Shown: positions 5,463 through 47,261 of the stretch, piece by piece
Layout: every line of letters begins with the position of its first letter
How positions within the stretch are numbered: position 1 is the stretch's first letter
IMG/VR virus record: IMGVR_UViG_3300042691_040811
From: a virus
Taxonomy: Duplodnaviria; Heunggongvirae; Uroviricota; Caudoviricetes
Direction: 5' to 3' (one strand)
Length of the DNA stretch: 64,000 nt
Position numbers and translations under genes: made by a program
The notes under the pieces: model-generated
The model's input: the letters and a program-made list of their open reading frames with translations, nothing else
Databases searched by the model: none
What the model was told of the DNA's origin: nothing

Positions 5463-6977
5463 TCAGAAGCGGAATGTGGTTTGGACTAAGGCCCCGAAAG
5501 TATCAAGGTTCTTATTAACTTCCCCCATCGGCGCACTGAGGTAGAACACCGCAGGAGTCACGGAGATGTTATCCGTAACTTGGAACTTGTAGTAGGCCTC
5601 AAAGGCGTATTGGCCATCATTGGCACTGTTGCCGTTAATAGAAGTGATGAAAGTGGGCTGACCAAATGCCGCTCCGAGCGCATTGCCTTTTTGGAAAGCA
5701 TCTTGCCAAACCAGCCCCGTATACCACGATTGGGAAGCGGCACTGCCACCGGTTTGATACCCGACTCTATTATAGCCCCATCCTGCCGAAATCGAAGGGA
5801 TCAGCCCGGCTTGCAAGGGTTGCCAGTAACCAGCCAAAGAGAACGAATTGGATTGGCCGCCTGTAAACGAATTAGGCAAGGTTGCTGAAAGGAAATTGGT
5901 GCCCGCTACGGCAACATCATAGTTGGAATAGGTGTAGGCCCCCGTTAGATTCCAGTTTTGCCTACCATAAGAGATCTGGACAGTAGAGGAAGCACCGGAG
6001 TTACCATTAAAAATACCACCTTCTGCGGAGTTGCCTTGATCGCCATTGGCGGCGACATAAGCACCCCCCAAACTAAAACCACCACTATGATACCAAAGAC
6101 CGGCCCCACTTCCCAAAACTTGCGTATAGGTGCCGGGAGCCCCCGCATACTGAAAAACTTGCAAGATGCGGTCTGCCGTATAAACTGATGGCCACACTGG
6201 CAGCGCATCGTCTTGACGGACCTTAGGGCCGAAGACTGCCGTGAAGTTCTCACCAATCGGGAACTTGTAGAACAAACGGTTAATAGTTACGGAGTCGTTG
6301 CCATTCGTATCATTTTCTTGGAATCCAGCAGAGAGCTGGGTGAGAGGGGTGGGGTAAGCTCCGAAACCGCTATTAACGAAGTTGCCAGCCCTTAGCTGAG
6401 TGCGCAGTAGATCCTTGCCCGTAAAGGAGGTGTCAAAATTTAGCTTAACGTCGTAGTTAAACGATACGGCTTCGTCCAGATTGTAGTTGTCCTTAGTGTT
6501 GCCGCCATAGGACAACCCTCCGAGAACCCATGTCGCCTCACCACGCAACTTCGTCGTTGTAGAGAATTGAGTGGCTTCTAGTTGTCCAACCCGGCCTTCC
6601 AACCCATCAACCCTACCTTTAAGGGTTGCCAATTCAACCGCAAATTCATCCATGAGCTTGCTAAGCTCGTCCGTAACCTCAGTCACACGATCAAGGCAAG
6701 CATTGAGCAGAGCGGCAGCTTCGTAACGGGTCATGGCGTTACCGCCACGGAAGGTAGAATCTGGATAACCAGCAACACACCCGTAACGCTCCACAAGATT
6801 GCTAAGGGCTTGATAGGCCCAGTCTGTTGGGCGCACATCTGAGAACTGCGCTACGCTGGTAACTTGCCCTTGGGAGGAATATTGATTGACGGCGTTAAGG
6901 TTAAGGTCAGCGGCACTTGCCGGGGATACCAACCCCAGGGCAATAGCACCAATACCTGCAAAATTTCTAATTTTCAT
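5463..6977 (-). CDS. SLH-domain outer-membrane porin (OprB-like, cyanobacterial type)
   Basis: Signal peptide MKIRNFAGIGAIALGLVSPASA. SLH motif DVRPTDWAYQALSNLVERYGCVAGYPDSTFRGGNAMTRYEAAALL. Coiled-coil linker, Gly/Asn-rich beta-barrel body, C-terminal ...TTFRF (terminal Phe). Confidence 0.85.
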   Translation of the reverse strand: MKIRNFAGIGAIALGLVSPASAADLNLNAVNQYSSQGQVTSVAQFSDVRPTDWAYQALSNLVERYGCVAGYPDSTFRGGNAMTRYEAAALLNACLDRVTEVTDELSKLMDEFAVELATLKGRVDGLEGRVGQLEATQFSTTTKLRGEATWVLGGLSYGGNTKDNYNLDEAVSFNYDVKLNFDTSFTGKDLLRTQLRAGNFVNSGFGAYPTPLTQLSAGFQENDTNGNDSVTINRLFYKFPIGENFTAVFGPKVRQDDALPVWPSVYTADRILQVFQYAGAPGTYTQVLGSGAGLWYHSGGFSLGGAYVAANGDQGNSAEGGIFNGNSGASSTVQISYGRQNWNLTGAYTYSNYDVAVAGTNFLSATLPNSFTGGQSNSFSLAGYWQPLQAGLIPSISAGWGYNRVGYQTGGSAASQSWYTGLVWQDAFQKGNALGAAFGQPTFITSINGNSANDGQYAFEAYYKFQVTDNISVTPAVFYLSAPMGEVNKNLDTFGALVQTTFRF

Positions 6978-7706: not shown

Positions 7707-8336
7707 TTAGGAATCAGATTCCAGAGGAATCAGCCTACGTGCATAGTCATAGGCATAGGAAGTACGAGCCCCGTGAATACCCCACCCTAGCCAACTGTGG
7801 GCGTAAGCCATGTAACGCTCGATGGGTTTACCTGGGACACGCATCTTATCTTGGATACGCAACCATTGTGGCTCCACCAGAATGTAGTTGAGCTGGGTGT
7901 CTAAAGAGGATGGGTCACCTCCAATCCGTTTGGCAAAGTTGCCTAGTCCGTAGTAACGATCCGAGGATGTAAACTGGATTAGGCCAAAGCCACCGGCCTT
8001 ACACCTTTCATAAGTGGTACGAGCACCACCTTCACAGATGTTGGGGACGAATGTAGACTCTTGCTTGATGTTCCCCAAGATAGTTGCCAAGGCATTCTTA
8101 TCTGTGATGCCCTTATCCTGAAAGAAGTTCAAAGCAGTGAGTTCGTTGTTATCACAACCTTTGCAAGTGTAGCGTTTTTCCTTAGGTTGCTCCGCAGACG
8201 GCTCCCCCATAGTTGCGGGCTGAGCGATGTTGGTAGCAATGGTAACGGGAGCTGTTTCCGGCGGTTTAGGTAAAGAAGCGGAAACAGGAGCCGTAGCCAG
8301 AACGGAAGAGGCCACAAGTGTAGTGAGGCTAAGCAT
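7707..8336 (-). CDS. secreted SLT-domain lytic transglycosylase-like protein
   Basis: Signal peptide. KQESTFVP (catalytic E-S) followed by GGFGLIQFT (GLMQ-like), typical of family-1 lytic transglycosylases. Confidence 0.6.
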   Translation of the reverse strand: MLSLTTLVASSVLATAPVSASLPKPPETAPVTIATNIAQPATMGEPSAEQPKEKRYTCKGCDNNELTALNFFQDKGITDKNALATILGNIKQESTFVPNICEGGARTTYERCKAGGFGLIQFTSSDRYYGLGNFAKRIGGDPSSLDTQLNYILVEPQWLRIQDKMRVPGKPIERYMAYAHSWLGWGIHGARTSYAYDYARRLIPLESDS

Positions 8337-30544: not shown

Positions 30545-30715
30545 TTTTATTAAAAAGCAAGCACACAGACTAAGTGCTTATGGTGTTAAAAGTCTGTTGG
30601 CTCTCAACATGAGAACCCTTATTACTTACCCAACCCTACCTAATGGTTTTTGCTGGGGGAGGGTTTCCCCCCCCAGGGCCTTACACCATATCCTCCATGC
30701 CTTCTTCATGTGAAA

Positions 30716-31150
30716 TCAAGCCTTACCGCCATCCTCCACGTTGAAAACAGGGGCGGGGATGTTCCCTTGAGAGGGAATCATATAGATGGTTTTGTTACCC
30801 TTCTCAGCCCCCTCTTGCAACCCGGTCACCCAGAGATACGAAAGGTATTCCGTGTTTCCTTTGAGGGAATCCGCCACGATGCGATTAGCCTCAGAGACAC
30901 CTTTGGCCCTTTCGATTTCAGCCTGTGCAAGCTGCTTTGCACTTTCAAACTTGGCTTGGGACTCCAGCACAGCAACTTGCCTCGTGTACTCGGCCTTCAT
31001 TAGTTCAGCCTTGCCTTCTAGGCCTTGCTGCCAGACCGAATAGTAAGGCCCCCCAAACATGATGGCGGCAATAAACAGAAAAATTGCGACGCCTGCGGCG
31101 ATGGCAAGGTTGATGAAAATGTTTCTTTCGTAGTCCTTTGAGTTAGGCAT
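30716..31150 (-). CDS. membrane-anchored coiled-coil protein (SPFH-associated?)
   Basis: N-terminal TM helix, then alanine/glutamate-rich helical segment; immediately downstream of the flotillin-like gene. Confidence 0.45.
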   Translation of the reverse strand: MPNSKDYERNIFINLAIAAGVAIFLFIAAIMFGGPYYSVWQQGLEGKAELMKAEYTRQVAVLESQAKFESAKQLAQAEIERAKGVSEANRIVADSLKGNTEYLSYLWVTGLQEGAEKGNKTIYMIPSQGNIPAPVFNVEDGGKA

Positions 31151-31207
31151 TTTACTGATGGGGTGAACTATTAAGTGGGGGGCCAGTTAACCAGCCCCCC
31201 GGTGACA

Positions 31208-32770
31208 TCACTTTTTACCGGTGATTTTTGAGACCAGGTCAGAACCAATCTCACTCTGGGTAAAGGCCTCAATCGCTGCGGCAAGCTCAGTCCCTCCCTT
31301 GGAACTGAAGACATCCATGACCTTAGTGATTCCCTCAGGGGCGGAACCCCCGTTGGCAATCACCTTGACTTCTGCCTTTTGCAAAGACTTAGCTTGCTCA
31401 GAACCCACGGCAATGTATGCCTTAAATGCCTCAATGAGAGCCAAGTAATTTTGATAAGAAGGATTCTCACCGATCTCTTTGGCTAAGGCGATTTGGGCAG
31501 AGACGGGGGCAAGTTGCAAGGCTTTCTCAGCCTCAGCCTTGGCGACCCCTGTAACCTGAATAGCCTCAGCACTCTTCTTCTCAGATTGCAGAGCACCTTC
31601 GGCAATCAACACCATAGTCTCTTGCTCCTGAGCGGCCTTAACCAGGGCAGTTTCCTTGTCAACTTCCGCAACTTGCTGAAGTTTCTGTGCCAAAACTAGA
31701 GCAGTGTCACGGTCAATTTCGGCAGTTTTAACCTCCTCAACCCGCTTAACCGCCAAGTTTTTCTCAGTAGTTACAGCTTGCTGAGCCAAAACCTGCTGCT
31801 TAGACTGTTCTTTAGCAACGCCAACTGCCTTATCTTTAGCAGCTGACCTTTCCCCCACCTGTTGCTCCGCCTCTTGCTTACTCATGAGGATTTCCCGCTC
31901 AGCCTCCACTGCGGCCACCTCAGCTTGCCGCTTGTTTTCCACTTCGGAAACCGTGGCAATACGATTATTTTCAGCCACTGTCTTACGACTATCCCGCTCA
32001 ATTTCGGAATTTTTCTTTGCCATAATTCTGGCAATTACATCGGATTTGCTGGAATCACGGATGTCCATCAATTCCATGTTGCGGACAGATTGCACACCCC
32101 ATTCTTCTAACTGCCCTTGCACCTCCTGAGAGAAGCTGTCCCCGAAGGTAGACCTTTGAGTCATAATGTTATCGATCTTATCCGAAGCCAGCACTTTTCT
32201 CACAACACCTTGCATAATTAGACTAAGCTGGTGCTTAAGTTCGTTGACGTTGTTGATACGCTTAGCAGCGACAACGGGATCCGAAATGCGGAAAAATGCT
32301 GTTACGTCTACAAGGAAGGGCACCCTGTCTTCATCATAAGCTTCGTAGTTTTCCAGAGAAAGGTCGAAGTTGCTTACGGGGAGTTTAATTACGGAAACGC
32401 CCATCTTAGGCACCCAGAAGGGGATCTCATAGTAAACGTTGCCACCCGGCAGATTAGACCCATAGGGAACAGTCTTGTTGCCTGATTGAACAATGTGGAC
32501 TGTGTTCGTTGTTACCACACGCCTAAATAGGAAGGCGGCAAGGATGGAAACGATGGCTGTGGAGCCACCAACGGCCAGACCCGCCTTAAGCACCGTGAAC
32601 ACTAGATTGCCTTCCGATGGGGCAGGCAAGGTTGCTACGGGCGCAGCGGTAGCCACTAGCGCCAACTCCGACGAGGCCACCATGTGGCTGTGAGCCTTTG
32701 CTTCGGGGGCCAGGAAGGGGATTGTGACGGTTGCTGCCGACAGGGCCAGGGCGGCGAGGGCAAATCTCAT
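31208..32770 (-). CDS. flotillin / SPFH (band-7) family protein
   Basis: Signal/TM. SPFH core RVPFLVDVTAFFRISDPVVAAKRINNV...LRNMELMDIRD. Long EA-rich coiled coil as in YqiK/FloT. Confidence 0.75.
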   Translation of the reverse strand: MRFALAALALSAATVTIPFLAPEAKAHSHMVASSELALVATAAPVATLPAPSEGNLVFTVLKAGLAVGGSTAIVSILAAFLFRRVVTTNTVHIVQSGNKTVPYGSNLPGGNVYYEIPFWVPKMGVSVIKLPVSNFDLSLENYEAYDEDRVPFLVDVTAFFRISDPVVAAKRINNVNELKHQLSLIMQGVVRKVLASDKIDNIMTQRSTFGDSFSQEVQGQLEEWGVQSVRNMELMDIRDSSKSDVIARIMAKKNSEIERDSRKTVAENNRIATVSEVENKRQAEVAAVEAEREILMSKQEAEQQVGERSAAKDKAVGVAKEQSKQQVLAQQAVTTEKNLAVKRVEEVKTAEIDRDTALVLAQKLQQVAEVDKETALVKAAQEQETMVLIAEGALQSEKKSAEAIQVTGVAKAEAEKALQLAPVSAQIALAKEIGENPSYQNYLALIEAFKAYIAVGSEQAKSLQKAEVKVIANGGSAPEGITKVMDVFSSKGGTELAAAIEAFTQSEIGSDLVSKITGKK

Positions 32771-32882
32771 TGCTTTGGGTTGAGTCAGCCCTTATCATAG
32801 CCCCATGTGCGGGGGTATCCTTGAGAGCCAGAAAAACCTTTACAATCTTTTAGGGATTCTGCCTAAACCGTCAATTAAAAAG

Positions 32883-32967
32883 CAGAGAGTGAGGGATACG
32901 AACCCACGGGGCTTTTACACCCACGATCTTTCCAAGATCGCACCATAAACCACTCGGACAACTCTCC
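32883..32967 (-). tRNA. tRNA-Ser(GGA)
   Basis: Minus read ggagagt...gatcttGGAaagatc...; long variable arm; one T-stem mismatch. Confidence 0.6.
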
Positions 32968-32997
32968 TTAATTAGGGGATTTGAGTGTACCCCTGTA

Positions 32998-33080
32998 CGG
33001 AAGATGTTGGGATCGAACCAACGGAGGTTTTACCCTCACGGTTTAGCAAACCGCTGCATTAACCACTCTGCCAATCTTCC
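32998..33080 (-). tRNA. tRNA-Ser(GCU)
   Basis: 83 nt: ggaagattggcagagtggttaatgcagcggtttGCTaaaccgtgagggtaaaacctccgttggttcgatcccaacatcttccg. Anticodon at 34-36, long variable arm. Confidence 0.75.
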
Positions 33081-33173
33081 CCAAGGGTTAATTTACCTAG
33101 ACTTAGGCACCCTAGTTTAGTTGCGGAGCCGCAACCCTTCATTTTGCATTAGTGTCCCAAGAAGGTGGGACAA

Positions 33174-33253
33174 CTGGAGTGGTAGGAATCGAACCTACAT
33201 TGTCTCTCGACACTGGTTAACAGCCAGCCGCATTACCGTTATGCTACACCCCA
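33174..33253 (-). tRNA. tRNA-Asn(GUU) (atypical long variable region)
   Basis: Anticodon loop ctGTTaa, T arm gtaggttcgattcctac, acceptor pairs with one G-U. Variable region about 13 nt is unusual for Asn. Confidence 0.5.
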
Positions 33254-33387
33254 TTAAATCAATTTCTTAACATCCATTCACCTGGAAGTTCGTCTGGTTC
33301 CTCTCTGCGGCGGAAGACCATAGAAAGAGGTAAGATAATTGTTAAAATTCCAAAAAGTCCCATAGTCACCGGAAGATAGGAACAAAG

Positions 33388-33474
33388 CGGAAGTGGTTGG
33401 ATTTGAACCAACGGAGGTTTTACCCTCTCCTGTTTTCAAGACAGGTGCAATAAACCGGACTCTGCCACACTTCC
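33388..33474 (-). tRNA. tRNA-Ser(UGA)
   Basis: 87 nt; anticodon loop ctTGAaa; long variable arm gagagggtaaaacctcc. Confidence 0.7.
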
Positions 33475-33615
33475 ATACATTCGGTATTCGCAAATAGAGA
33501 ATGCCAATGGAGCCTAGCGAGATAAGTTAAGATAAGGCCCCTATACCCGTTTGCATTTAACAAATAATACCTGGAGGGTTAAACCAGTGTAAAGCATTTG
33601 CAACTACTTTACAAA

Positions 33616-33689
33616 TCCAGTGAGAGAGACTCGAACTCCCAACCTTCTCTTCCCAAAAGAGTCGTTCTACCATTAGGAACTACCACTGG
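33616..33689 (-). tRNA. tRNA-Pro(UGG)
   Basis: 74 nt; anticodon loop ttTGGga; T arm gggagttcgagtctctc. Confidence 0.65.
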
Positions 33690-33705
33690 TTGACCGAATA
33701 GCCTA

Positions 33706-34044
33706 TTAAACCTTACCCTTACCTTTAAGGAATAGTCTGCTCTCATCAATGATTGCATCCATAAGTTTTTGGTTGAACTCCTCCAATCTATGGAAGTAAG
33801 GGTGCTGCATTTCCTTGCACAACCTTTCCTGGTTATCCCATACCCGCCCCCATTTTGACACCAGGCTATCATAGATAAACTGATTTTCAGGGCTTTCAGA
33901 GGGGAATGTGACGGGATCCTCACCCACCACTGTAAGGTCATGTCTCACCCTTATTTGCACGTATTGCTCTTTGGTGAGGTTGTCATCCCACACTTCAGCT
34001 AGTTCATCAAATGATTGCCACAGTGCCTTCTCTTTAGTTTCCAT
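33706..34044 (-). CDS. small protein, paralog of 34073..34267
   Basis: Shares ...KEQYVQIRVRHDLTVVGEDPVTFPSESPENQFIYDSL with neighbour KDQYVARSMNDLLLSLGESPETFRTDKPENDYVYRSL. Embedded in tRNA cluster. Confidence 0.5.
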   Translation of the reverse strand: METKEKALWQSFDELAEVWDDNLTKEQYVQIRVRHDLTVVGEDPVTFPSESPENQFIYDSLVSKWGRVWDNQERLCKEMQHPYFHRLEEFNQKLMDAIIDESRLFLKGKGKV

Positions 34045-34072
34045 AACTTCCTAAATTAGTTTCTTTGCTGAG

Positions 34073-34267
34073 TCAATCTGGTGTCCCAGCTTCCCTTTCT
34101 TGAAAAACATCGTAGCATTGCTCAAACCCCGCCGCCAACGACCTATAAACATAGTCGTTTTCCGGCTTATCGGTGCGGAAAGTCTCTGGGCTCTCCCCCA
34201 ATGATAGGAGAAGGTCATTCATTGACCTTGCCACGTATTGATCTTTGGTTTCGTCTTCCATTTTCAC
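34073..34267 (-). CDS. small protein, paralog of 33706..34044
   Basis: See above. Confidence 0.45.
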   Translation of the reverse strand: MKMEDETKDQYVARSMNDLLLSLGESPETFRTDKPENDYVYRSLAAGFEQCYDVFQEREAGTPD

Positions 34268-34455
34268 TTAGATACTTAGGGGGCTATGTGGGGGAAGAGT
34301 GCCTAAGCCCTACGGCTCTCTGGTAGCCATCTCCAGAGATAAAGACCGATGCCTGCGCAGAGCGGTGACCACGGCCAAAGCCGACGCTAGAGGCTACCTA
34401 ACGGCCCCAGATAACTGAGGACTTAATACCCCTTGATGGTTTACCACAAGGGAAA

Positions 34456-34528
34456 AGCGGAGGGTGGACTTGAACCACCGGCCTCTAGGTTATGAGCCTA
34501 GCGAGCTGACCAGACTGCTCTACCCCGC
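34456..34528 (-). tRNA. tRNA-Met/Ile2(CAU)
   Basis: gcggggtagagcagtctggtcagctcgctaggctCATaacctagaggccggtggttcaagtccacc...; acceptor has one mismatch; initiator/elongator/lysidine-Ile cannot be decided by eye. Confidence 0.6.
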
Positions 34529-34667
34529 AATGTGGGCCAAGGCTTTAACCTTGGCTGGGCGATGTGCTTATTAGGCTAATCACCGGGGCCAAGCATTTCA
34601 CCTTGGCTTGGGGTATTTCAACCCGTTGTTTCTTTTGATAGCAGTAACTTCGAAGTTTACCCACCGG

Positions 34668-35438
34668 TTACCCCCTCTTTTTCCCGGCCTGAGGGACAAA
34701 TTCTGGTACATACTTCTTGAAGTGATTTACCAAGGTGGACTGAGACTTATTATACCCTAAATCAACCACAGCTTGAAAACCGTTATCAATGTACACGGAG
34801 TAGTAATACCGAATTTCTTCCAAAAACGACTCCTTTCCTTTTTCCTTCTGAAGCAAGTGACTCTTGATTATTTCATCCGCCTCTTCAACGGTGCAGGGTT
34901 TATGCCCTAGTTTCATTCTCCTAACTATGTTAGAAGCTTTTATCAAGGTTTTTCGGTCTTCTTCAGATAAGCTACTAAACTTTGCACCTTCTACCCAGCC
35001 ATCTGGCAATGGTTCCGTTTTCTTTAACCTTGTGTTTTTAAATGTAGAAGGGTTATGTATGAACCTTGTACCGAACTGAGAGTTATTAGGCCCACTAACC
35101 CTCCGTCTATGAGATTCCCTATACGACGGGTCATCCCATCTCTTCTTTAAGGAATCTATAGAGTATAGACCCCAACAGCCGGAGTTTAAACATAAGGGGT
35201 TGTTTAAATCCTTAGCTATCAGGTCCCTTTCTATGGATAGAGCTTCAATCCAATTATCATCAGAGCGATCAAACACTTTTACTATGTGTTTAATAGGCTC
35301 GTACAACTCCCAGTATCTTTTGTTGGTTACTGGGGACCCCATATAGTATTCATCGAACTTGCGTTCTTTATGAACACCCCAGTACCAATACGGCTGGTCA
35401 ACAAAGGTAATCCTATAGACGTAAATCCTGGGCTCCAT
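34668..35438 (-). CDS. GIY-YIG family homing endonuclease-like protein
   Basis: N-term IYVYRITFVDQPYWYWGVHKE...NNPLCLNSG fits GIY-(10-11)-YIG spacing. C-terminal basic region with NUMOD-like R-R-R-V-S-G-P-N-N-S-Q-F-G. Sits inside tRNA cluster. Confidence 0.6.
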   Translation of the reverse strand: MEPRIYVYRITFVDQPYWYWGVHKERKFDEYYMGSPVTNKRYWELYEPIKHIVKVFDRSDDNWIEALSIERDLIAKDLNNPLCLNSGCWGLYSIDSLKKRWDDPSYRESHRRRVSGPNNSQFGTRFIHNPSTFKNTRLKKTEPLPDGWVEGAKFSSLSEEDRKTLIKASNIVRRMKLGHKPCTVEEADEIIKSHLLQKEKGKESFLEEIRYYYSVYIDNGFQAVVDLGYNKSQSTLVNHFKKYVPEFVPQAGKKRG

Positions 35439-35567
35439 TCTCTCAGCTTGTTGGCTGAGAAGTTATACCCAAGCTCAAGTTAAGCAGGAATCATGCTAGT
35501 TGATCAAAAAGTCCAGTCTTGTTTCATTTTAGTAGATAAAGTGATGAGAAAATGCCCTAGTGGGCAA

Positions 35568-35640
35568 TGGGACATCTGGGATTCGAACCCAGGACTAATC
35601 GGTTAAAAGCCGAGTACTCTCACCGCTGAGTTAATGTCCC
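35568..35640 (-). tRNA. tRNA-Lys(UUU)
   Basis: 73 nt gggacattaactcagcggtgagagtactcggcttTTTaaccgattagtcctgggttcgaatcccagatgtccca. Confidence 0.8.
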
Positions 35641-36097
35641 TCAAATTTTACAATGTAAAATTTGGTTGAATGGAGGGGAAGTTTTTGGGTTTTCTTTTAA
35701 AGAAAACCTTTGCACCTCTTTAAACTACTTGCCAGTCCACTTAAATAGCCGGACATGCCGGTTAACCAGGGGTCGAGTCGAACGACCATTCCCCCTTCAT
35801 TCATTCTTGGATTATTATCCAAGTTGCCCTTTACTTTCGTATTGGGCGGTAATGCTGAGTTACTGTTGTTAACAGTAGTGAAACGACTTTACAGGTCGCC
35901 CCACCCTCAACATAAGGTCTTTCCCTCCGTCAATGAATTTTTAGTGTGGAATCACCACATGTGACTTCATTAACACATTGTATCAGGAACTTCACGTATT
36001 ATGCTATTCTCAGACCATGAAACCTGAATCAATCTGAGAATTCGCCCTAAAAGAATCTTTATTGGAATAAACCTTAAGATTTCTTTATTTAGGGCAA

Positions 36098-36179
36098 TGG
36101 GTGCAGTAGGACTTGAACCTACGAAGCATTAAGCAACCGGTTTACAGCCGGTCTCCTTAGACCACTTGGATACGCACCC
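36098..36179 (-). tRNA. tRNA-Tyr(GUA)
   Basis: 82 nt; anticodon loop ctGTAaa; long variable arm (class II, bacterial Tyr). Confidence 0.7.
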
Positions 36180-36405
36180 GTATCCCCAATTATACCACAA
36201 TGGTTAGGGGGGTGCCAGGGGAACCACCCCTGGACTTTTGCTGGCCAAGCGAAACCTTGCCATGTAGCGGGTTATCGGCCTTCAGGTATCCCGCAAACCC
36301 TGCACCCCTTTCATTTAACGTATTGGGGACACCCCCGACGTGATTGGGGGCGACGCTGTTTCTTTCTGGTTAGGGGGCTAACAGAGCCCTTTCCCACAAA
36401 GGGAA

Positions 36406-36487
36406 TACTCGGGAGGGGACTCGAACCCCTAAGTCAAAGACGATCGCTTTTGAGGCAATTGCGGTTACCAATTTCGCCACCCGAGCT
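36406..36487 (-). tRNA. tRNA-Leu(CAA)
   Basis: 82 nt gctcgggtggcgaaattggtaaccgcaattgcctCAAaagcgatcgtctttgacttaggggttcgagtcccctcccgagta. Confidence 0.75.
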
Positions 36488-36554
36488 TATTTGCCCCTTT
36501 ATCGTAGGGGCTTCCTTTCAGTTGTCAAGGTTCCTGGGGTGAGCCCCCCCCGTG

Positions 36555-36600
36555 CCCATCTATTGTAGCCCCTGGCAAAGCAACCTGGCAGTTTGCCGGG
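36555..36600 (-). promoter_or_regulatory. conserved-type promoter upstream of tRNA cluster
   Basis: ctattgtagcccctggcaaagcaacctggc: variant of the recurrent element, positioned 5' of the first tRNA of the minus-strand cluster. Confidence 0.4.
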
Positions 36601-36650
36601 GCAAAGTTAGCAAATCTTAACACTGCCCCCCTACAGCTTACCCCATGCAA

Positions 36651-36974
36651 TCACCCTCTCCTATAGAGGTACCCACCATACTGATCCGCATTGCTCAAAG
36701 CAGCCGCAAACGATCCCTCATCGAGAAGATTGTAGCGAATGCCCTTGGCAGCCGAGGACCACGAAGCAGCCTTATAAACATTGCCATTGGCCTTGTCAAC
36801 AAAGCAATGGGCGTGCCGGGAGATAACGGCACCCTGGGAGTTCTCATCCTGCGCCACAACCTTATAGTTCTTCCGACCCGCTTCAATAATAAACTTACGC
36901 TTCAAAACGTTGCCCTCAGAGCGCTGCTCCAGAGTCTTACACAGTTTTTTGAGATTTGTAATGATGTCGGTCAT
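36651..36974 (-). CDS. hypothetical protein
   Basis: Start moved to MTDIITNL (36974) because conserved promoter occupies 36985-37055. Confidence 0.5.
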   Translation of the reverse strand: MTDIITNLKKLCKTLEQRSEGNVLKRKFIIEAGRKNYKVVAQDENSQGAVISRHAHCFVDKANGNVYKAASWSSAAKGIRYNLLDEGSFAAALSNADQYGGYLYRRG

Positions 36975-36984
36975 GGTGCTGTAG

Positions 36985-37055
36985 CGGTGGCAGCCTTGGG
37001 CCGCCGGACTCCCATATTGTAGCACGCTGCCTCTGGGGTTGGCAACCCTAAGGGT
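36985..37055 (-). promoter_or_regulatory. conserved promoter + hairpin
   Basis: ggtggcagccttgggccgcc hairpin, atattgtagcacgctgcc, ggttggcaaccc. Confidence 0.55.
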
Positions 37056-37070
37056 CTATAGCCAGGGGGG

Positions 37071-37400
37071 CTAGTTGCGACTCAGCGCCCTTTCATGAGC
37101 AAGCTCCTTCCAATCCTCCACCCATTTAGCACCCGCAGTGAACACCACAGTGGATGTGACCTGGGTAGCTTCCCGACCAATACGGGGGCAGTTTTCCACC
37201 GTAACAACAAACCTGTTTTTGCCCTTGGGCTTAGCGGTCATAGTGCGTCGACCACCTTGAACCTCAGCTTCCACAACGATTTTTCCGTCGTCGTAAACCC
37301 CTGAGGAAGTAAACCACGGGAACCCTCCTGGCACGCTGGCCAGTGCCTTATCCTTCATTGAGAGCGAGCTGTAAGGGACGGTACGAGAGAAACGGGTCAT
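37071..37400 (-). CDS. hypothetical protein
   Basis: 109-aa ORF starting right after the promoter/hairpin. Confidence 0.5.
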   Translation of the reverse strand: MTRFSRTVPYSSLSMKDKALASVPGGFPWFTSSGVYDDGKIVVEAEVQGGRRTMTAKPKGKNRFVVTVENCPRIGREATQVTSTVVFTAGAKWVEDWKELAHERALSRN

Positions 37401-37402
37401 GG

Positions 37403-37470
37403 TGGTTAAATGGTGGAGGCCTCAGGCCGCCTTACCCCATTATTGTAGCACCTTGCTCCCAGAGTCGTCA
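37403..37470 (-). promoter_or_regulatory. conserved promoter + hairpin (best-defined copy)
   Basis: On minus strand: TTGACG-18 bp-TGCTACAAT-aatgggg-TAAGGCGGCCTGAGGCCTCCACC-atttaaccacc-ATG. Confidence 0.65.
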
Positions 37471-37526
37471 ACTACTGGGGGTTTGGGCCGGAATCAACCC
37501 CATGAAGTTAATCAAAATGTAGTAAA

Positions 37527-37600
37527 CACCCTGGGCGGGACTTGAACCCACGACCTACGGTTTAGGAAACCGCAGCTCTATCCGACTGAGCTACCAGGGC
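37527..37600 (-). tRNA. tRNA-Arg(CCU)
   Basis: 74 nt gccctggtagctcagtcggatagagctgcggtttCCTaaaccgtaggtcgtgggttcaagtcccgcccagggtg. Confidence 0.75.
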
Positions 37601-37670: not shown

Positions 37671-38000
37671 TTAGGCTATGGGGTTGTCAGGAGAGTAAAC
37701 AATAGCCCCACCTGCCCAAATAACCAGCTTAGTGTAGGTGTCAAGACTCAGGTCAATGCAGGCGGAGGAGGACCCTTGGGCCAGCTTACACAGTTCCTTT
37801 ATTCTTAAAACAAAATTCAAATCCTTGTACCAATCTTTAAGGGTTTCATAGGCAAAGTATTCCTCCGGGTCAGGAAGCTCGTCACTTGAAAAATAAGGAG
37901 GCTCCGAAACCGGACACTTCTTTATTTTTGAAACAATTTCTTTTATAGCCCGATCACAAAGGTCTAAAACAACGTATGTGTGAACTGGTGCAGTTGTCAT
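37671..38000 (-). CDS. hypothetical protein
   Basis: 109-aa ORF. Confidence 0.45.
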   Translation of the reverse strand: MTTAPVHTYVVLDLCDRAIKEIVSKIKKCPVSEPPYFSSDELPDPEEYFAYETLKDWYKDLNFVLRIKELCKLAQGSSSACIDLSLDTYTKLVIWAGGAIVYSPDNPIA

Positions 38001-38017: not shown

Positions 38018-39172
38018 TTAGGTAATACGAAAAAAGTTATTGCGTGAAGTTTGGAACAACTTTCCTTCAATGGATTCCTTGTCTCTAATCAAGAAATTCT
38101 CATCTACAATTTTAACCCCCTCTAACTTAACACAACCTGCCCTAATCTTCCTTCTAGCGTCGCTGGTGCTTTCAGCCATCCCAACACTTTTCAAAAGGTT
38201 GGGGAGTTTGGTGGGGAAGTCAATCCCCTGAATTGATATTTCAGGTGCGTCTACATCTGTTGTTTTACTGGAAAGCGCAATGGATTCAGCAGCCCACTTT
38301 GCCTCAAAGGCTTTCTCTTTACCATGGAAAGTAGAAACAACCTCAAAGGCCATTCTCTGCTGCCTCTTCCTAGGTTCTGAGGGGAACTTGTCAAGGTCGC
38401 AGTCAGTTAGCAGAGTGATGTAGTCGTCTACGCAATGATCCGGTATCTTCTCAAGTTTTGAGAACATCTGGAGGGGGTGCTCGTTAATCCCGATTGCGTT
38501 ATTGAGACTTTTCGACATCTTTTGAACGCCATCAGTTCCCACCAGGATAGGCATTAGCATTCCTACCTGCAACCTGTCAGATCCAAAGTGTTTCTGAACA
38601 CCCCTACCAACAGAGACGTTAAACTTCTGTTCCACCCCTCCAAGTTCAACATCCGACTCGTACTTGAAACTATCGAACCCCTGAAGGAGGGGGTACATGA
38701 ACTCATGCAAACTGATTGGGACTTGTTTCTCAAGGCGACTTGAAAAGTCTTGCTTTGCCAGGAGCTGTTGAACCGTCATCATTGACTGAAGACGGATGGT
38801 ATCCTCCATCCCCATAGACTTGAAATGCTCTGAATTTGCCCGGAACTCACATTGAGCAGGGTTCAGGAACTTGCGGATTATGGAGAGAAAGTTTCCAGTA
38901 TTCTCCCTAACCTCCTCCTTTGAGAGTTGTTTGCGAGTCGAGGACTTGCCCGTAGGATCCCCAATCATCGCAGTGAAGTCACCGATAACAACCACAGGTT
39001 TATGACCCTCCCTTTGAAATGCCTGTAGCTTTCGGAGTAGGATTGAGTGACCTAGGTGAAGAAAATCGGAGGTAGGGTCAAACCCTAACTTGATCCTCCT
39101 TTGTTGGGAGAGGAAATCTTCAAGGTTTACTTGAGGGAATACATCTACGATTCCCCTTAAGAGATCATCCAT
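38018..39172 (-). CDS. tyrS: tyrosyl-tRNA synthetase
   Basis: GFDPTSDFLHLGHSILL (HIGH), GDFTAMIGDPTGKS, KMSKSLNNAIG (KMSKS), C-terminal S4-like segment RRKIRAGCVKLEGVKI. The GFDPT...LHLGH pattern is TyrRS-specific. Confidence 0.85.
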   Translation of the reverse strand: MDDLLRGIVDVFPQVNLEDFLSQQRRIKLGFDPTSDFLHLGHSILLRKLQAFQREGHKPVVVIGDFTAMIGDPTGKSSTRKQLSKEEVRENTGNFLSIIRKFLNPAQCEFRANSEHFKSMGMEDTIRLQSMMTVQQLLAKQDFSSRLEKQVPISLHEFMYPLLQGFDSFKYESDVELGGVEQKFNVSVGRGVQKHFGSDRLQVGMLMPILVGTDGVQKMSKSLNNAIGINEHPLQMFSKLEKIPDHCVDDYITLLTDCDLDKFPSEPRKRQQRMAFEVVSTFHGKEKAFEAKWAAESIALSSKTTDVDAPEISIQGIDFPTKLPNLLKSVGMAESTSDARRKIRAGCVKLEGVKIVDENFLIRDKESIEGKLFQTSRNNFFRIT

Positions 39173-39216: not shown

Positions 39217-39576
39217 CTAGGACACACCCTTGCCAAAGTTAGGATTGTTGATAAAGTCGTCGCACGGGTTGTGGATGAATAGCCTCATCTTCATTTTCCC
39301 GATACGATCCTTTTGGGTGAACCCCTCGGGTATGGGGCCATCCCAACCATTCTTACGGGCTTGCCCTGCTGAGGGGAACAGGCCCATTGCCACGGCAACG
39401 TGGGCCATTGTCCAGTGTGGCTCTATTTCCACGGACTCCTCAGGGGTGAACCCCCACCAATCGGCCTGAGGGAGATTGAACACCCCTGGTTTCACAAAGC
39501 AATGTTCCAGTTTCATCTTTTCTCTGTGCTGCACCCCCCTATCATAGCTCTTCTTGCGATGGGGAGCAAGGGTCAA
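39217..39576 (-). CDS. hypothetical protein
   Basis: 119-aa ORF. Confidence 0.4.
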   Translation of the reverse strand: MTLAPHRKKSYDRGVQHREKMKLEHCFVKPGVFNLPQADWWGFTPEESVEIEPHWTMAHVAVAMGLFPSAGQARKNGWDGPIPEGFTQKDRIGKMKMRLFIHNPCDDFINNPNFGKGVS

Positions 39577-39865
39577 AGGGCTCGGGCTTTCCCCTTAAGG
39601 TGTCCAGATGCCACCATAGGGACTTGCCTGGCCTATTTCCAATTTTTGGAAAAATCCACAACAATGCAGCACCTTCCTCAGCGGTTATACGCTCGGCCCT
39701 TCTAAACCCATTCCCCCTAAATAGGTTCCCATCGTTATCTACGATGTTGTAACGATTGTGCCAGGTGTATCCAGATAGGAACCCTACGCAGAAGTGGTCG
39801 CAAGGATCCCCATCATCCCACTTTGTCGCCAAAACATAATCACCGACTTCCAAGGGAGCAATCAT
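39542..39865 (-). CDS. hypothetical protein
   Basis: 107-aa ORF. Confidence 0.4.
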   Translation of the reverse strand: MIAPLEVGDYVLATKWDDGDPCDHFCVGFLSGYTWHNRYNIVDNDGNLFRGNGFRRAERITAEEGAALLWIFPKIGNRPGKSLWWHLDTLRGKPEPFDPCSPSQEEL

Positions 39866-40197
39866 AATTTTTCAAAGTCCTCTCTAAAAGTAGCAAGTTG
39901 AGCCTCAAGCTCTGCCTTAATCAGCAGGAGCAACCTAGGGTTACCGGCGCTCCTATTCAAATCCAGGTGAAAGCAACCGTCGCCAATCGTAAGGCTTAGA
40001 CCTCTCTCAACTCCAGGATTAGAGATCACCCCTTTGGCATTTAGCCAATTGTTAAGGGTGTCAAGGGCTTTCTCCGTGATTTTAATTAGACTGAGCAAAG
40101 TCCTTCCAGACTCAAGATCAAGTTCTGTCATTTTGCTCCTTGGGTTGTAGAACTGAGGGCACGGGCCATGTAAACAGTGCGGCCGGTGGCTGTGCAC
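39862..40197 (-). CDS. hypothetical protein
   Basis: 111-aa ORF, 4-nt overlap with neighbour. Confidence 0.4.
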   Translation of the reverse strand: MHSHRPHCLHGPCPQFYNPRSKMTELDLESGRTLLSLIKITEKALDTLNNWLNAKGVISNPGVERGLSLTIGDGCFHLDLNRSAGNPRLLLLIKAELEAQLATFREDFEKL

Positions 40198-40358
40198 ATG
40201 CCACAGTCTACCAGCTTGATCAGGCCCCGTCGCTCAAGCGACTTTGCGACCTTAACAGTTTTGTAGTCATGCGCCACGGAATGCAACCTTCCAGACTTTA
40301 CCAGAAAGTCAAACATTTGCTGTTGCAGGTAACCCAGGCGGACGGGTCGATCAGTCAT
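40128..40358 (-). CDS. hypothetical small protein (possible winged-helix)
   Basis: 76 aa. Confidence 0.35.
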   Translation of the reverse strand: MTDRPVRLGYLQQQMFDFLVKSGRLHSVAHDYKTVKVAKSLERRGLIKLVDCGMCTATGRTVYMARALSSTTQGAK

Positions 40359-40602
40359 TTTCAGGGATCCTCAGGGCATAGTGAGTGTGCTCGCAGGGTC
40401 CATCTTGTGGACGAAGGATAGTTGCCCCGATAACTTGATTGCGAGAGTTACGGTAGGGAGTGTAGCTAGCGAACGTTTCAGTTTTACTCCAATCGAGTAG
40501 CCGAAGCCGAGCACTCATAGCAGCTTCTCCGCACTCAATCTGCTCCATACCAGATTGATCGAAGATTGGTGAGTTCTTAGGCATGATGGTATAATTAGGC
40601 AT
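40351..40602 (-). CDS. hypothetical protein
   Basis: 83 aa. Confidence 0.35.
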   Translation of the reverse strand: MPNYTIMPKNSPIFDQSGMEQIECGEAAMSARLRLLDWSKTETFASYTPYRNSRNQVIGATILRPQDGPCEHTHYALRIPEND

Positions 40603-40623
40603 TGATTTAATGGGGGGTAAGGA

Positions 40624-40857
40624 TTAACCGTTGATAGAGGTCAGACGCCACTCAATGTGGAAAAGGACCCTTTCCACAAGGTAGTTGTTGCCATAACCAA
40701 TCCCGTACATAGAGACACAGTTCCGAAGAGTTTCCCGAATCAATTGGTGCGAGACTTCCCCCGACTGAAGATAGTCGGCAAGCTCCTCAGCAATCTTCAA
40801 GCAGATTTTGTTTTCTTCGTGGTTGCTGAGCCGATTGTTCAAGGTGGTGGTGGTCAT
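40624..40857 (-). CDS. hypothetical protein
   Basis: 77 aa, directly after promoter 40870-40935. Confidence 0.45.
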   Translation of the reverse strand: MTTTTLNNRLSNHEENKICLKIAEELADYLQSGEVSHQLIRETLRNCVSMYGIGYGNNYLVERVLFHIEWRLTSING

Positions 40858-40869: not shown

Positions 40870-40935
40870 GTGGCGGCCTCAGGCCGCCTTACCTATACAT
40901 TGTAGCACCTTGGCTGGGGACTTGCAACCCCTATC
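40870..40935 (-). promoter_or_regulatory. conserved promoter + hairpin
   Basis: ggcggcctcaggccgcc, acattgtagcacc, gacttgcaaccc. Confidence 0.6.
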
Positions 40936-42149: not shown

Positions 42150-42180
42150 TTTTTATAAAAAAAGGGGGGGGTAACCCCCC
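42150..42180 (-). terminator. rho-independent terminator
   Basis: Minus: ccaggggggttacccccccc followed by T7. Confidence 0.55.
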
Positions 42181-42191
42181 TGGGCTATGCC

Positions 42192-44097: not shown

Positions 44098-44597
44098 TCT
44101 AAAACTAAAACATCTTTGGTTTGCATAGCCAACTCAACATCCACTATCTCCCCTCCAACCTGATCCTTGTAGCCAAAGTTCTTTTCAAGAAAAGAGTAGT
44201 AATCTATTCCATTTTCCCACTTACTTGAGTAATTACAATGGTTGACTGTGGTTTTTGAAACGCTGAAGTCATCCTCAAGGACTTCCCTATAACTACCCTT
44301 ATAGACAATTAAAACCTCCATGCCGTCTGGGTATCCCATAAGTATTTTCTGTAAGTCCTTGTTTTTCAACCTTTTTCTAATACCCTCAGGAATCAATTTG
44401 AAATTACAAGCCCTTCCAGGGAAATCGAACCCTGCTCTATAGTTTACAAAACTATTGCATCGCCTCAATGCTTGAAGGGCATGGCCCTCAAAATTGCACC
44501 CTGCGTAGTGAGGGTGGTATTGAGGGTTTGGGGGCTTTAGTGCGTCTAGTCCCTTGGCATCTGTGTTACCCCTGCAAACCGCAGAAGGCAGTCGCAC
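44091..44597 (-). CDS. hypothetical protein upstream of methyltransferase
   Basis: 168 aa, 7-nt overlap with MTase gene. Confidence 0.4.
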   Translation of the reverse strand: MRLPSAVCRGNTDAKGLDALKPPNPQYHPHYAGCNFEGHALQALRRCNSFVNYRAGFDFPGRACNFKLIPEGIRKRLKNKDLQKILMGYPDGMEVLIVYKGSYREVLEDDFSVSKTTVNHCNYSSKWENGIDYYSFLEKNFGYKDQVGGEIVDVELAMQTKDVLVLEC

Positions 44598-45242
44598 ACC
44601 TCAACGTATCTGAGTTCAGATGCTTCCCCACTCGTTTAATCTAACGAGCAAATCAAATAATCCACTACGCCTTCTGTGCTTGAGACCCTGACTTGATCAG
44701 AATCTAGTCTCTCACATTTCCGACTTTCTGTACCGTGAATACAGTCTGCTGGAAGTCTTTCGACATTGCAACTAACTTTCGCCAGCGCAATTAGGGGCTT
44801 CGGTTTCATGGATCGCAGTTTTCCCTATCCTCCACCCGTATAATCCGAAGACTATAAGGGCTACGAAGAACGTAGATTTCACGGCGTGTCAGTCAACCAA
44901 CGACTAAGTTTCCGTCCTATTTCCGGGACAACTACTGTAAACCCCGGTCACCTAAGCAGCATTTATCCTTGGCGTGATACTCATGCTTAGATGTTGCTTA
45001 CGGTTTCTGCCCCCGCCAAGGGGAATTAACCGATGGAAGATTGGTGGAGTTGGCCGAGGCAATCACCTCTATTCTCCCTCTTCCTTTCCTCTATGTTTCG
45101 GTGAACCGAAACCCGACCCTCATAGGGGAGAAGTCGGTTTGCTCAGCTCTTTTCAAGCTGAGGGGGAGGACAATCCCTTTTTGCCGCTTTACTTGAGTAA
45201 AGAGGATTTAATCACCCAATTTAGGCATCTGCCGATTGGGAA

Positions 45243-45314
45243 TGGGGGATGAGGGACTCAAACCCCCGGCCCTCTCCTTGTAATGGAGCTGCGCTATCAC
45301 TGCGCCAATCCCCC
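45243..45314 (-). tRNA. tRNA-Val(UAC)
   Basis: 72 nt gggggattggcgcagtgatagcgcagctccatTACaaggagagggccgggggtttgagtccctcatccccca. Confidence 0.7.
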
Positions 45315-45709
45315 TTGTTCACCTATTATAGCAGCCCTAAGGGGGCAAGTGCCAAGAGTTAGCAAACCTTAACATTTCCCGGTGGGCAGAAAACTCAGAA
45401 GATGCCCCTAGGCAGATTAGTAGCATACTGTAGAGAAACCCTACGATTCGCCTTCCGGGTAGCAAGTAGCCACTTGAGAAAAGTGCTTTTCATTTTACTA
45501 AAATTGCTGAAAGTTTAGTGGACTAGGAGTAGAAAGCAGAGAGAAGGGTTATGACGGCATAACCCAAAGCTCCAAACACCAGAAGAAAAACACTGGTTCC
45601 TGTAAAGAAGATCCAAGGGCTCATTTGCCTCAATTTATTCCATTTACGGGAAGGGTTGAATGGGGGCAGGGGGACTTGAACCCCCACAGCCTTACGGCCG
45701 ACGATTTTT

Positions 45710-46442
45710 CCTACTACTTTCAGTTTCCTGAACCGATCTTTGGGGATCGTTGTAGTCTGGACTATATCTTCACCTACAGCTTTACCTGTTTAGGTGCTCA
45801 GTGCATAGTCTCTGAACCTTTCCCTGTACGGGGCTCGGCTGCTGATTGCCCAATTTCCCATAGTTTTTCAACTGTCACGCCCGTTGTTTCCAACCACGTT
45901 GTAGTCATGGGAACTATAAGGGTTTTCCAGCAATTCTCTGAGTTCTCATTCTTTGATTTCTCAAAGATGACTCTCTGGAGATCCAGGAATTGGTGAAGCC
46001 GATTGTGCCAAGTCCTTGTCATAACCACAAGATTCTCAACTGAGTTGTTTTTAGGGTTGTTGTCCATGTGATGGACTACTTCATTGTAGTGAAGTTTCCT
46101 GCCTAAAATAGACTCGGCTATGTTCCTATGGGTTAATCCAGGAGTGCTAATGTAGTTGTGAGTGGCTGTCTCTAAGGATTTTAACCTTACGAGTTCTTTG
46201 TAGCAATCGGAGCAAATCCTTTGAGGTTTTCTCCAAGCCTTGTAAGGTTTCTTACAGGCTTCACACTGCTTGTCCCACATATACCTGGGTTTGGATCTGG
46301 CAATTGCCTTCAACCTTTCCAAGTTACAACTATGACACAAACGACGACCTGCCTCCCTGGGGCCTCCGCAATTTTTACAAATCAGGCTTTTCTTCACTTT
46401 CCTGAAAGGGAAAGGTGCATTTTACCAGATCAGTAAAGGCCG
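45710..46442 (-). other. group I-like intron in tRNA-Leu(UAA) anticodon loop, carries HNH endonuclease ORF
   Basis: See tRNA feature. Position U34/A35, U at -1 and terminal G match the cyanobacterial/plastid trnL(UAA) intron. Confidence 0.6.
45798..46397 (-). CDS. HNH homing endonuclease (intron-encoded)
   Basis: N-terminal Cys-rich zinc fingers CKNCGG...CHSCN...CEACKK...CSDC. HNH motif HHMDNNPKNNSVENLVVMTRTWHNRLH. GTG start. Confidence 0.8.
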   Translation of the reverse strand: MKKSLICKNCGGPREAGRRLCHSCNLERLKAIARSKPRYMWDKQCEACKKPYKAWRKPQRICSDCYKELVRLKSLETATHNYISTPGLTHRNIAESILGRKLHYNEVVHHMDNNPKNNSVENLVVMTRTWHNRLHQFLDLQRVIFEKSKNENSENCWKTLIVPMTTTWLETTGVTVEKLWEIGQSAAEPRTGKGSETMH

Positions 46443-47242: not shown

Positions 47243-47261
47243 GGATAGTTAATAACTTATA

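Follow-up and report, generated by a model that had tools for sequence, protein, structure and literature searches.

Aminoacyl-tRNA synthetases (aaRSs) are known from phages with very large genomes. Huge phages (>200 kb) encode up to 15 of them per genome, and these enzymes, which are described as related to the enzymes of the host yet distinct from them and which occur together with many phage tRNAs, have been interpreted as aids to translation or as a means of redirecting it (Al-Shayeb et al. 2020, PMC7162821). Tyrosyl-tRNA synthetase (TyrRS) occurs as the sole aaRS or as one of few in Rak2-like jumbo myophages of about 350 kb (Mimasvirus GAP32 and XbC2, Eneladusvirus fHe-Yen9-04, Serratia phage BF and Pectobacterium phage CBB), where it has been discussed as part of tRNA turnover. 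The gene considered here also encodes a TyrRS and lies within a stretch of 64,000 nucleotides (the window) of the viral record IMGVR_UViG_3300042691_040811. An original prediction, made from the letters of the window, had recognized this TyrRS and had treated aaRSs as known mostly from giant viruses, a view that the huge-phage and Rak2-like examples do not bear out. Phage aaRSs and phage TyrRSs being known already, what is new is a distinct and conserved TyrRS lineage, derived from cyanobacteria, in large cyanomyophage-like genomes.

In contrast with the aaRSs of huge phages, those considered here are of a single type, form a conserved lineage of their own and occur in cyanophage-like genomes that appear to be related to the T4-like Kyanoviridae. 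The TyrRSs of Rak2-like phages, encoded next to GroES in phages of Enterobacterales and Xanthomonas, are only 25-28% identical to the window protein, about 420 amino acids (aa) in length and matched over their full length by the Bacillus/E. coli rather than the Thermus type, and their position as outgroup in the tree described below indicates an independent acquisition. The nearest cellular relatives are cyanobacterial TyrRSs (Nostoc, Cyanobium, Gloeothece, Synechocystis), which are 44-50% identical to the window protein and share its Thermus-type architecture and DQKFN and IPD motifs but have an N-terminus about 20 residues longer. The best full-length structural match is the T. thermophilus TyrRS-tRNATyr complex (1H3E, 9SDF; 34% identity), with which three domains and a G34-reading Asp are held in common. 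Among isolated phages, the closest by shared genes is S-SRM01 (Kyanoviridae, 240.8 kb, freshwater; PMC8557907), which has homologues of a gp214-like protein (65% identity), a porin (48%) and an NfeD-like protein of the window and shares psbA-region genes with one related locus (L006; loci compared here carry L numbers) but itself lacks both TyrRS and tRNA-Tyr. The tRNA-Tyr of phage T5, which acts against retron-Eco7 (PMC11555353), resembles that of the window in having its own strong promoter in a tRNA-rich region, whereas T5 needs no TyrRS and tRNA-Tyr is dispensable in the rest of the cyanophage clade. The jumbo Microcystis phage PhiMa05 has been annotated with other, weakly supported aaRSs.

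The synthetase and its lineage

The gene and the domains of its product are located as follows.

38018..39172, minus strand: TyrRS coding sequence of Thermus/TyrZ type, an ATG-to-TAA open reading frame (ORF) of 384 aa plus stop, identified by TIGR00234, Pfam and PDB matches, a structural model and Foldseek
38288..39100, minus strand: catalytic Rossmann-fold and helical domain of TyrRS, residues 25-295 (Pfam tRNA-synt_1b; alignment to 1H3E and 6BQY)
38021..38245, minus strand: C-terminal S4-like domain of TyrRS, predicted to bind the variable arm of tRNA, residues 310-384 (sub-threshold Pfam matches, model, Foldseek)

Membership of the encoded protein in the TyrRS family was evident from its match to the tyrS equivalog TIGR00234 of NCBIfam (325.5 bits against a cutoff of 113.8, with residues 8-384 on positions 15-404 of the 406-position profile) and from a match to Pfam tRNA-synt_1b over residues 25-295 (2.5e-63). 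The motifs GFDPT (residues 30-34), LHLGH (residues 38-42) and KMSKS (residues 218-222) were all present. HLGH (H39-H42, nucleotides 39047-39058) and KMSKS (K218-S222, nucleotides 38507-38521) were invariant across an alignment of 27 sequences of the clade described below, as were all aminoacylation and catalytic motifs. Residue-by-residue alignment with 1H3E and 6BQY placed the tyrosine-pocket residues D72, Y160, Q164, D167 and Q182 within the catalytic domain. Of these residues, Y160, Q164, D167 and D72 align to Tyr175, Gln179, Asp182 and the GDP-loop Asp of T. thermophilus TyrRS, which we take to belong to the tyrosine-binding pocket of that enzyme, and all four are invariant in the clade. 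D245 (nucleotides 38438-38440), also invariant in the 27-sequence alignment, aligns to Asp259 of T. thermophilus TyrRS, the reader of anticodon base G34 (PMC1934993). K183 stands where the T. thermophilus enzyme has Arg198, which contacts A73, and cyanobacterial enzymes likewise have Lys at this position. Asn378 aligns to Asp423, the T. thermophilus reader of pseudouridine 35, only in an unreliable 1.1-bit segment of the alignment.

In bacterial TyrRS, the C-terminal domain, which is S4-like and bacteria-specific, binds the long variable arm of the tRNA (PMC1934993). By sequence, this part of the window protein fell just under the Pfam cutoffs (25.9 against 27 bits for SYY_C-terminal and 20.2 against 22.8 for S4). 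In an AlphaFold2 model built from the 27-sequence clade alignment (mean predicted local distance difference test score, pLDDT, 83.8), residues 310-384 were modeled at pLDDT 81-91, and scores were low only in known mobile loops, namely the GDP loop, the KMSKS loop and the linker between domains. Foldseek aligned the whole chain with T. thermophilus TyrRS-tRNATyr (9SDF_A and 1H3E_A, E ~1e-31, TMq 0.72). The nearest solved structures by sequence were likewise of Thermus type (A. baumannii 6BQY, 3.5e-75; T. thermophilus 1H3E, 3.4e-72), with TyrRS structures of Bacillus/E. coli type scoring far lower. Judged from the model and the fold search, the gene encodes a complete three-domain bacterial (class Ic) TyrRS, and the product would be expected to be catalytically competent and enzymatically active. 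The original prediction of a class I TyrRS with GFDPT, LHLGH and KMSKS motifs and a C-terminal S4-like domain was accordingly upheld by the TIGR00234 score for the former and, for the latter, by the predicted fold.

A search of 5.8 billion proteins gave two blocks of TyrRS matches with a sharp gap between them. The first comprised about 69 clusters (at 90% identity), none of them named, with proteins of 378-404 aa that were 56-69% identical to the window TyrRS and were encoded only on metagenomic and IMG/VR viral contigs, of up to 280 kb, and the second consisted of named cyanobacterial TyrRSs of 400-445 aa, from 50% identity or less down. Nine members of the first block were found on IMG/VR viral contigs, two of these of 248 and 279 kb, by an alignment-based scan, whereas an IMG/VR scan with the single TyrRS protein as query gave no match. 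Among the matches listed by a metagenome scan that combined the clade alignment with generic patterns, all were ordinary bacterial TyrRSs at 49% identity or less. A scan of GTDB with one genome per species gave no cellular TyrRS above 50% identity, the top 30 or so matches being all from Cyanobacteria and those from other phyla at 45% or less. A TyrRS search of 50,697 phage records yielded no record of a Synechococcus, Prochlorococcus or other cyanophage, and no published description of a cyanophage TyrRS lineage was found.

A neighbour-joining tree of 191 sequences over 380 columns recovered the phage block as monophyletic in 200 of 200 bootstraps, with support of 97% for Cyanobacteria and of 72% for the two groups together. 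The phage clade branched beside the cyanobacteria and inside no genus, with a mean internal distance of 0.47 compared with 0.35 within Cyanobacteria. The phylogeny against cyanobacterial and viral TyrRSs that had been suggested as a check on the original prediction thus gave a phage clade next to Cyanobacteria and separate from the Rak2-like enzymes.

The reading frame of TyrRS was intact at every locus examined, and TyrRS was the sole gene always common to the related loci, the neighbouring genes mostly differing. Among four clade members with unsaturated synonymous sites, dN/dS ranged from 0.11 to 0.22, values which indicate that the lineage has been kept under purifying selection; dS of the window gene was saturated against all relatives. 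Compared with cyanobacterial TyrRSs, those of the phage clade showed small N-terminal trims (median length 384 compared with 405 aa) and 11 fixed substitutions, with no domain lost. These features would fit a single capture from a cyanobacterium followed by retention.

Two further records call for separate mention. A TyrRS of 393 aa on IMGVR_UViG_3300042561_002100 (L014; 179,526 bp) is 48% identical to the window protein and groups with the cyanobacterial enzymes (97% bootstrap), and represents either a second, recent viral capture or a cyanobacterial contig mis-called as viral. The best tblastn match labeled as a phage (36.7%), Acinetobacter phage MD-2021a (L128, CAKLQH020000026.1), was rejected as a mislabelled chromosome in which the neighbours are erpA, anmK, a dehalogenase and tyrS; this GenBank/INPHARED record is a source of false 'phage aaRS' matches.

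Nature of the replicon

The replicon is a phage, as had been supposed from the start, and not the ordinary chromosome with housekeeping genes that would have overturned the original prediction. No housekeeping operons were found in the 64-kb window, and 62 of its 71 ORFs of at least 100 aa are on the minus strand. Genes of the window include those for NAMPT and phosphoribosyl pyrophosphate (PRPP) synthetase, an ATP-dependent DNA ligase, three HNH/homing endonucleases, a DNA methyltransferase, TnpB, a subtilase, a Band_7/NfeD pair, a Phage_lysozyme2-domain protein and an OprB/SLH porin. Phage-typical genes, the relatives of the TyrRS on IMG/VR viral contigs and synteny with an isolated phage all agree with this assignment, the synteny involving two genes.

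7707..8336, minus strand: gp214-like virion/tail-lysozyme protein (59-65% identity with proteins from isolated freshwater Synechococcus myophages); context for a cyanophage
5463..6977, minus strand: OprB-family/SLH porin of 504 aa, sharing 47.6% identity with the 'porin' of S-SRM01; context

The gp214-like protein has relatives among the virion proteins of three isolated Synechococcus myophages from freshwater (DSL-LC02, DSL-LC03 and S-SRM01), and cyanophages accounted for about 400 of its 657 matches. In S-SRM01, the porin gene follows gp214 by about 2 kb, and the order gp214-porin is identical in the window. An outer-membrane porin is an unusual item of conserved cyanophage cargo.

Homologues of S-SRM01 genes were nevertheless few (7 of 121 window ORFs), and no match was obtained when positions 30-50 kb of the window were compared with the 50,697 phage records by megablast, which makes this a new phage, only distantly related to those described. 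Genes for T4-like core proteins (gp23 capsid, gp20 portal and gp17 terminase) were absent from the 64-kb window, and when IMG/VR was scanned with the major capsid protein of S-SRM01, the best 80 matches were ordinary cyanomyophages. Support for T4-like affinity comes from the gp214/porin synteny and from homologues of psbA, RNR-beta, tail-fibre, helicase and denV genes in loci of the clade. Thus, psbA (94% to S-SRM01) and an LpxH-like gene (79%) flank TyrRS in L006, RNR-beta (66%) is near TyrRS in L007, and tail-fibre, DEAD-helicase and denV homologues are near TyrRS in L013 and L300, which come from contigs of 243-248 kb. Taken together, this indirect support suggests a large, freshwater-type cyanobacterial virus that is cyanomyophage-like and related to T4-like phages, the label 'freshwater' resting on similarity to freshwater isolates and not on sample metadata.

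tRNA genes, transcription signals and neighbouring genes

ARAGORN identified 14 tRNA genes in the window, all on the minus strand, of which 13 were confirmed by Rfam; a predicted split tRNA-Phe gene brings the number to 15. The genes that bear on the relation between tRNA-Tyr and TyrRS are the following.

32882..37600, minus strand: array of ten tRNA genes (Arg-CCT, Leu-CAA, Tyr-GTA, Lys-TTT, Met, Pro-TGG, Ser-TGA, Asn, Ser-GCT, Ser-GGA), found with ARAGORN and Rfam
36098..36179, minus strand: tRNA-Tyr(GUA), 82 nucleotides, class II (ARAGORN; Rfam tRNA, 57 bits)
31208..32770, minus strand: Band_7/SPFH protein of 520 aa, a synteny anchor that serves as context only and is no part of the enzyme

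The array, in which a homing endonuclease gene and a DUF7717 ORF are interspersed, is transcriptionally downstream of TyrRS, and three more tRNAs found by ARAGORN and one split tRNA lie upstream of it (44409-47790). Thus, tRNA-Tyr(GUA) was found within a tRNA cluster as originally described, while the placement of TyrRS downstream of that cluster has to be reversed, since all of these genes are on the minus strand and TyrRS is therefore upstream of the main array. The tRNA-Tyr has G1-C72, A73, a GUA anticodon and a long variable arm with a weak stem, and CCA is not encoded. With this normal bacterial identity set it would be a substrate of the TyrRS, and nothing suggests an orthogonal pair.

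The pairing of TyrRS with tRNA-Tyr that the original prediction implied did not extend to related loci, for each of which 10 kb on either side of TyrRS was read. None of 14 related loci had a tRNA-Tyr gene within this distance, and 10 of the 14 had no tRNA gene there at all. The synteny TyrRS - tRNA array - Band_7 is kept in the two closest relatives (Band_7 identity 79% for L301 and 72% for L298), as are the position of the array and part of its order, and the order in L301 (Arg-CCT, Leu-CAA, Lys-TTT, Pro-TGG) is that of the window minus Tyr between Leu and Lys. A narrow search with the exact anticodon-arm pattern of the phage tRNA-Tyr matched one IMG/VR contig (197,792 bp), which was not among the TyrRS contigs. 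TyrRS and tRNA-Tyr are thus not a conserved cognate pair in this lineage, and with no tRNA-Tyr near TyrRS in relatives, the enzyme would be expected, across the clade, to act normally on host tRNA-Tyr.

The Band_7 gene shares a block (29771-32770, minus strand) with two others, one for a zinc-ribbon protein and one for an NfeD-like protein of 144 aa (47% identical to the 'membrane protease subunit' of S-SRM01), and the block is kept in synteny with TyrRS and the tRNA array in L301 (4832-7821) and L298 (12224-14706) at 72-86% identity.

Signals and ORFs around TyrRS and the tRNA genes were as follows.

36189..36218, minus strand: sigma-70-like promoter CTGGCA-18-TATAAT with TG, ending 10 nucleotides upstream of tRNA-Tyr
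47836-47808, 37640-37612, 36528-36501, 36218-36189 and 33593-33564, minus strand: sigma-70-like promoters before Leu-TAG, Arg-CCT, Leu-CAA, Tyr and Ser-TGA, respectively, each with 10-11 of 12 consensus positions
40899..40927, minus strand: candidate sigma-70-like promoter TTGCAA-17-TACAAT with TG, before the small-ORF/TyrRS block, with 9 of 12 consensus positions and a putative function
42162..42181, minus strand: strong intrinsic-terminator-like hairpin (GGGGGG..CCCCCC and T-run), closing the preceding transcription unit
39217..40857, minus strand: six tightly packed, co-oriented small ORFs of 76-119 aa immediately upstream of TyrRS, with no Pfam match, two matching phage-only PHROGs of unknown function
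37671..38000, minus strand: ORF of 109 aa of unknown function, starting 18 nucleotides past the TyrRS stop codon

Sigma-70-like sites were enriched about 1.8-fold (32 compared with 17.8 +/- 4.6 in shuffles), so that the description of the region as promoter-saturated was right in direction and overstated in degree. The coding strand carried all of the ten best sites, five of which stood directly before tRNA genes, that of tRNA-Tyr included; a TG-extended -10 promoter preceded four tRNAs besides tRNA-Tyr. With promoters directly before at least five tRNA genes, the tRNAs appear to be transcribed separately and not processed from one precursor. The T4 late-promoter motif TATAAATA had no match in the window where 1.45 were expected, a result that says nothing on expression class. 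The six small ORFs upstream of TyrRS are probably co-transcribed with it. Small unknown genes surround TyrRS, as had been noted originally: of the ten small ORFs that flank it, six had no family match and four matched phage-only PHROGs of unknown function, one of the latter also matching Pfam DUF7717.

The split tRNA-Phe(GAA) gene (45661-46478, minus strand), detected in the intron mode of ARAGORN 7 kb upstream of TyrRS, has an anticodon loop broken by a 733-nucleotide intron that holds an HNH endonuclease ORF (45798-46397). Rfam placed a group I intron (RF00028, 68.1 bits against a cutoff of 50) at 45748-45990 within the same interval. If correct, a tRNA gene of the phage would here be host to a mobile group I intron.

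Other observations concern genes farther from TyrRS. A pair of genes for NAMPT (529 aa, phrog_448, 2.6e-186) and ribose-phosphate pyrophosphokinase (333 aa) at 2253-4774 (minus strand) makes up a phage NAD+ salvage module, and a NAMPT-HNH arrangement was also noted about 10 kb from TyrRS in the relative L005. An intact TnpB gene (IS605 OrfB/Cas12f-like, 381 aa) is present at 12300-13445 (minus strand), and a paralog, P0138, with 76% identity is on a record from the same 117,840-bp contig. Relatives of this TnpB at 59-92% identity make up a clade without named members, and TnpBs from named cyanobacteria come in at only about 50%, a pattern like that of TyrRS. Four large ORFs with no family match (11490-12218, 24297-25787, 27484-29670 and 61139-62320, all on the minus strand) match, at 26-39% identity, one and the same region of a protein that has 605-699 aa in L298 and L301, which suggests a paralogous family, possibly structural; its 728-aa member had no match in the 50,697 phage records.

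Proposed role and alternative explanations

We consider it rather likely that an active TyrRS, expressed from an early-type block of small genes, keeps tRNA-Tyr charged for phage translation independently of the supply of host TyrRS. An ancestor of the large, freshwater-type, T4-like-related cyanomyophages would have captured the gene once from a cyanobacterium. In the infected cell, the enzyme would activate tyrosine with ATP and load tRNA-Tyr(GUA), its substrate being host tRNA-Tyr in most of the clade and here also the separately promoted tRNA-Tyr of the phage. The presumed benefit is that the supply of Tyr-tRNA-Tyr would be freed from continued expression of host TyrRS during translation of a phage genome of about 250 kb.

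Several points weigh against this account or parts of it. Capsid, portal and terminase genes were not seen in the 64-kb window or within 10 kb on either side of TyrRS at the related loci. Named cyanobacterial matches of TyrRS and TnpB, at only about 50%, single out no host genus, and the grouping of the phage clade with cyanobacteria was obtained by neighbour-joining only and with moderate support (72%). Tyr codons make up 3.5% here, compared with 3.0% in cyanobacterial flanks and 4.5% in S-SRM01, and with the higher usage found in the phage that lacks both TyrRS and tRNA-Tyr, Tyr codon demand is unsupported as the reason for carrying the enzyme. Moreover, one synthetase cannot make translation independent of the host, and nothing explains tyrosine in particular.

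A possible but less likely explanation is that TyrRS belongs to a counter-defence module in which the enzyme, together with tRNAs of the phage and enzymes of tRNA repair, makes tyrosine decoding possible again once tRNA-Tyr has been depleted or host TyrRS inactivated by host immunity or by toxins. This explanation would account for tRNA-repair genes near TyrRS in relatives, which include those for T4-type RNA ligase Rnl1, Rnl2-like ligases and a metallophosphatase. Thus, T4 Rnl1 and PHA02142-type ligases are encoded within 7 kb of TyrRS in L002, L004 and L005, while in L300 (positions 11750-13095; from the 243.5-kb ENA scaffold KRAE22-1 scaffold_21) TyrRS is followed within 600 nucleotides by RNA_ligase (PF09414) and PolyA_pol/CCA-adding (PF01743) genes in a compact tRNA-maintenance cluster. 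In the window, no RNA ligase was found, and PHROG and Pfam both identify the ligase at 49312-50436 as a DNA ligase. Other putative counter-defence cargo was noted in the region (NAMPT and PRPP synthetase, DNA methyltransferases). Anti-phage immunity is proven to target tRNA-Tyr, and T5 escapes retron-Eco7 PtuAB through over-expression of the phage's own copy behind a strong promoter (PMC11555353). The tRNA-Tyr of the window likewise has its own TG-extended -10 promoter 10 nucleotides upstream, but the absence of tRNA-Tyr from the vicinity of TyrRS in 14 of 14 relatives speaks against such a module, and a new synthetase would be of no help if the tRNA itself were destroyed. To our knowledge, no tRNA-Tyr-cleaving defence, tRNA-Tyr nuclease or TyrRS-targeting toxin is known from cyanobacteria, and no such nuclease or toxin was seen in the window. 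That Rak2-like jumbo phages acquired a TyrRS independently (about 26% identical, and in another genomic context beside GroES) is consistent with a counter-defence function, the case for which is one of guilt by association only.

More doubtful is the broader proposition that tyrosine decoding is a recurrent target of phage-host conflict, such that the cyanophage lineage, Rak2-like jumbo phages and, through captures of their own, giant viruses each took up a TyrRS because immunity or shut-off hits tRNA-Tyr or TyrRS. In the cyanophage lineage, the enzyme would then form, alongside tRNAs of the phage, RNA ligases and an enzyme that adds CCA, a module that restores tRNA-Tyr against a hypothetical cyanobacterial defence.

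It appears very improbable that the TyrRS serves, instead of or besides tRNA charging, as a group I intron cofactor like CYT-18 of fungal mitochondria. The group I intron (RF00028) in the split tRNA-Phe gene 7 kb upstream and the position of TyrRS in L006 beside an intron- and endonuclease-bearing psbA region would suit such a function. Intron binding by CYT-18, however, depends on an N-terminal extension and insertions, whereas the N-terminus of phage TyrRS is shorter than that of cyanobacterial enzymes and no clade-specific insertion of more than one residue was found. CYT-18 structures ranked only 47-50 in the fold search, as generic TyrRS matches, and in the clade every aminoacylation motif is invariant.

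Even less probable, and largely refuted, is the view that TyrRS is a recently captured passenger gene with no phage function that is heading to decay. The surroundings of the gene are indeed accessory and hypervariable, with many mobile elements (TnpB, HNH and homing endonucleases), but a deep, monophyletic, phage-only clade of about 69 clusters, more divergent than the enzymes of Cyanobacteria, with low dN/dS, invariant catalytic residues and an intact frame at all loci examined, is not what this view would predict.

Least credible of all, and also largely refuted, is a cellular origin of the window (cyanobacterial chromosome, island or plasmid) with the gene as host tyrS, for although the nearest named homologues are cyanobacterial and an OprB/SLH porin of cyanobacterial type and a TnpB are encoded in the window, no GTDB species genome exceeded 50% identity, housekeeping operons were lacking, ORFs were concentrated on one strand, the virion-protein and porin genes were syntenic with those of S-SRM01, an isolated phage that itself encodes a porin, and the relatives are IMG/VR viral contigs.

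Few environmental viruses have been studied as well as the T4-like cyanophages, whose genes of photosynthesis and metabolism are well known, yet a TyrRS is carried by no isolated cyanophage genome of the collection searched. A TyrRS lineage that is widespread and maintained by selection would extend the phenomenon of phage translation genes to large freshwater-type cyanophages, and prompts one to ask why tyrosine should have been the object of independent captures by large viruses that are unrelated. With one well-understood synthetase and cultivable relatives such as S-SRM01, this lineage offers a tractable single-gene case for why phages keep individual aaRSs.

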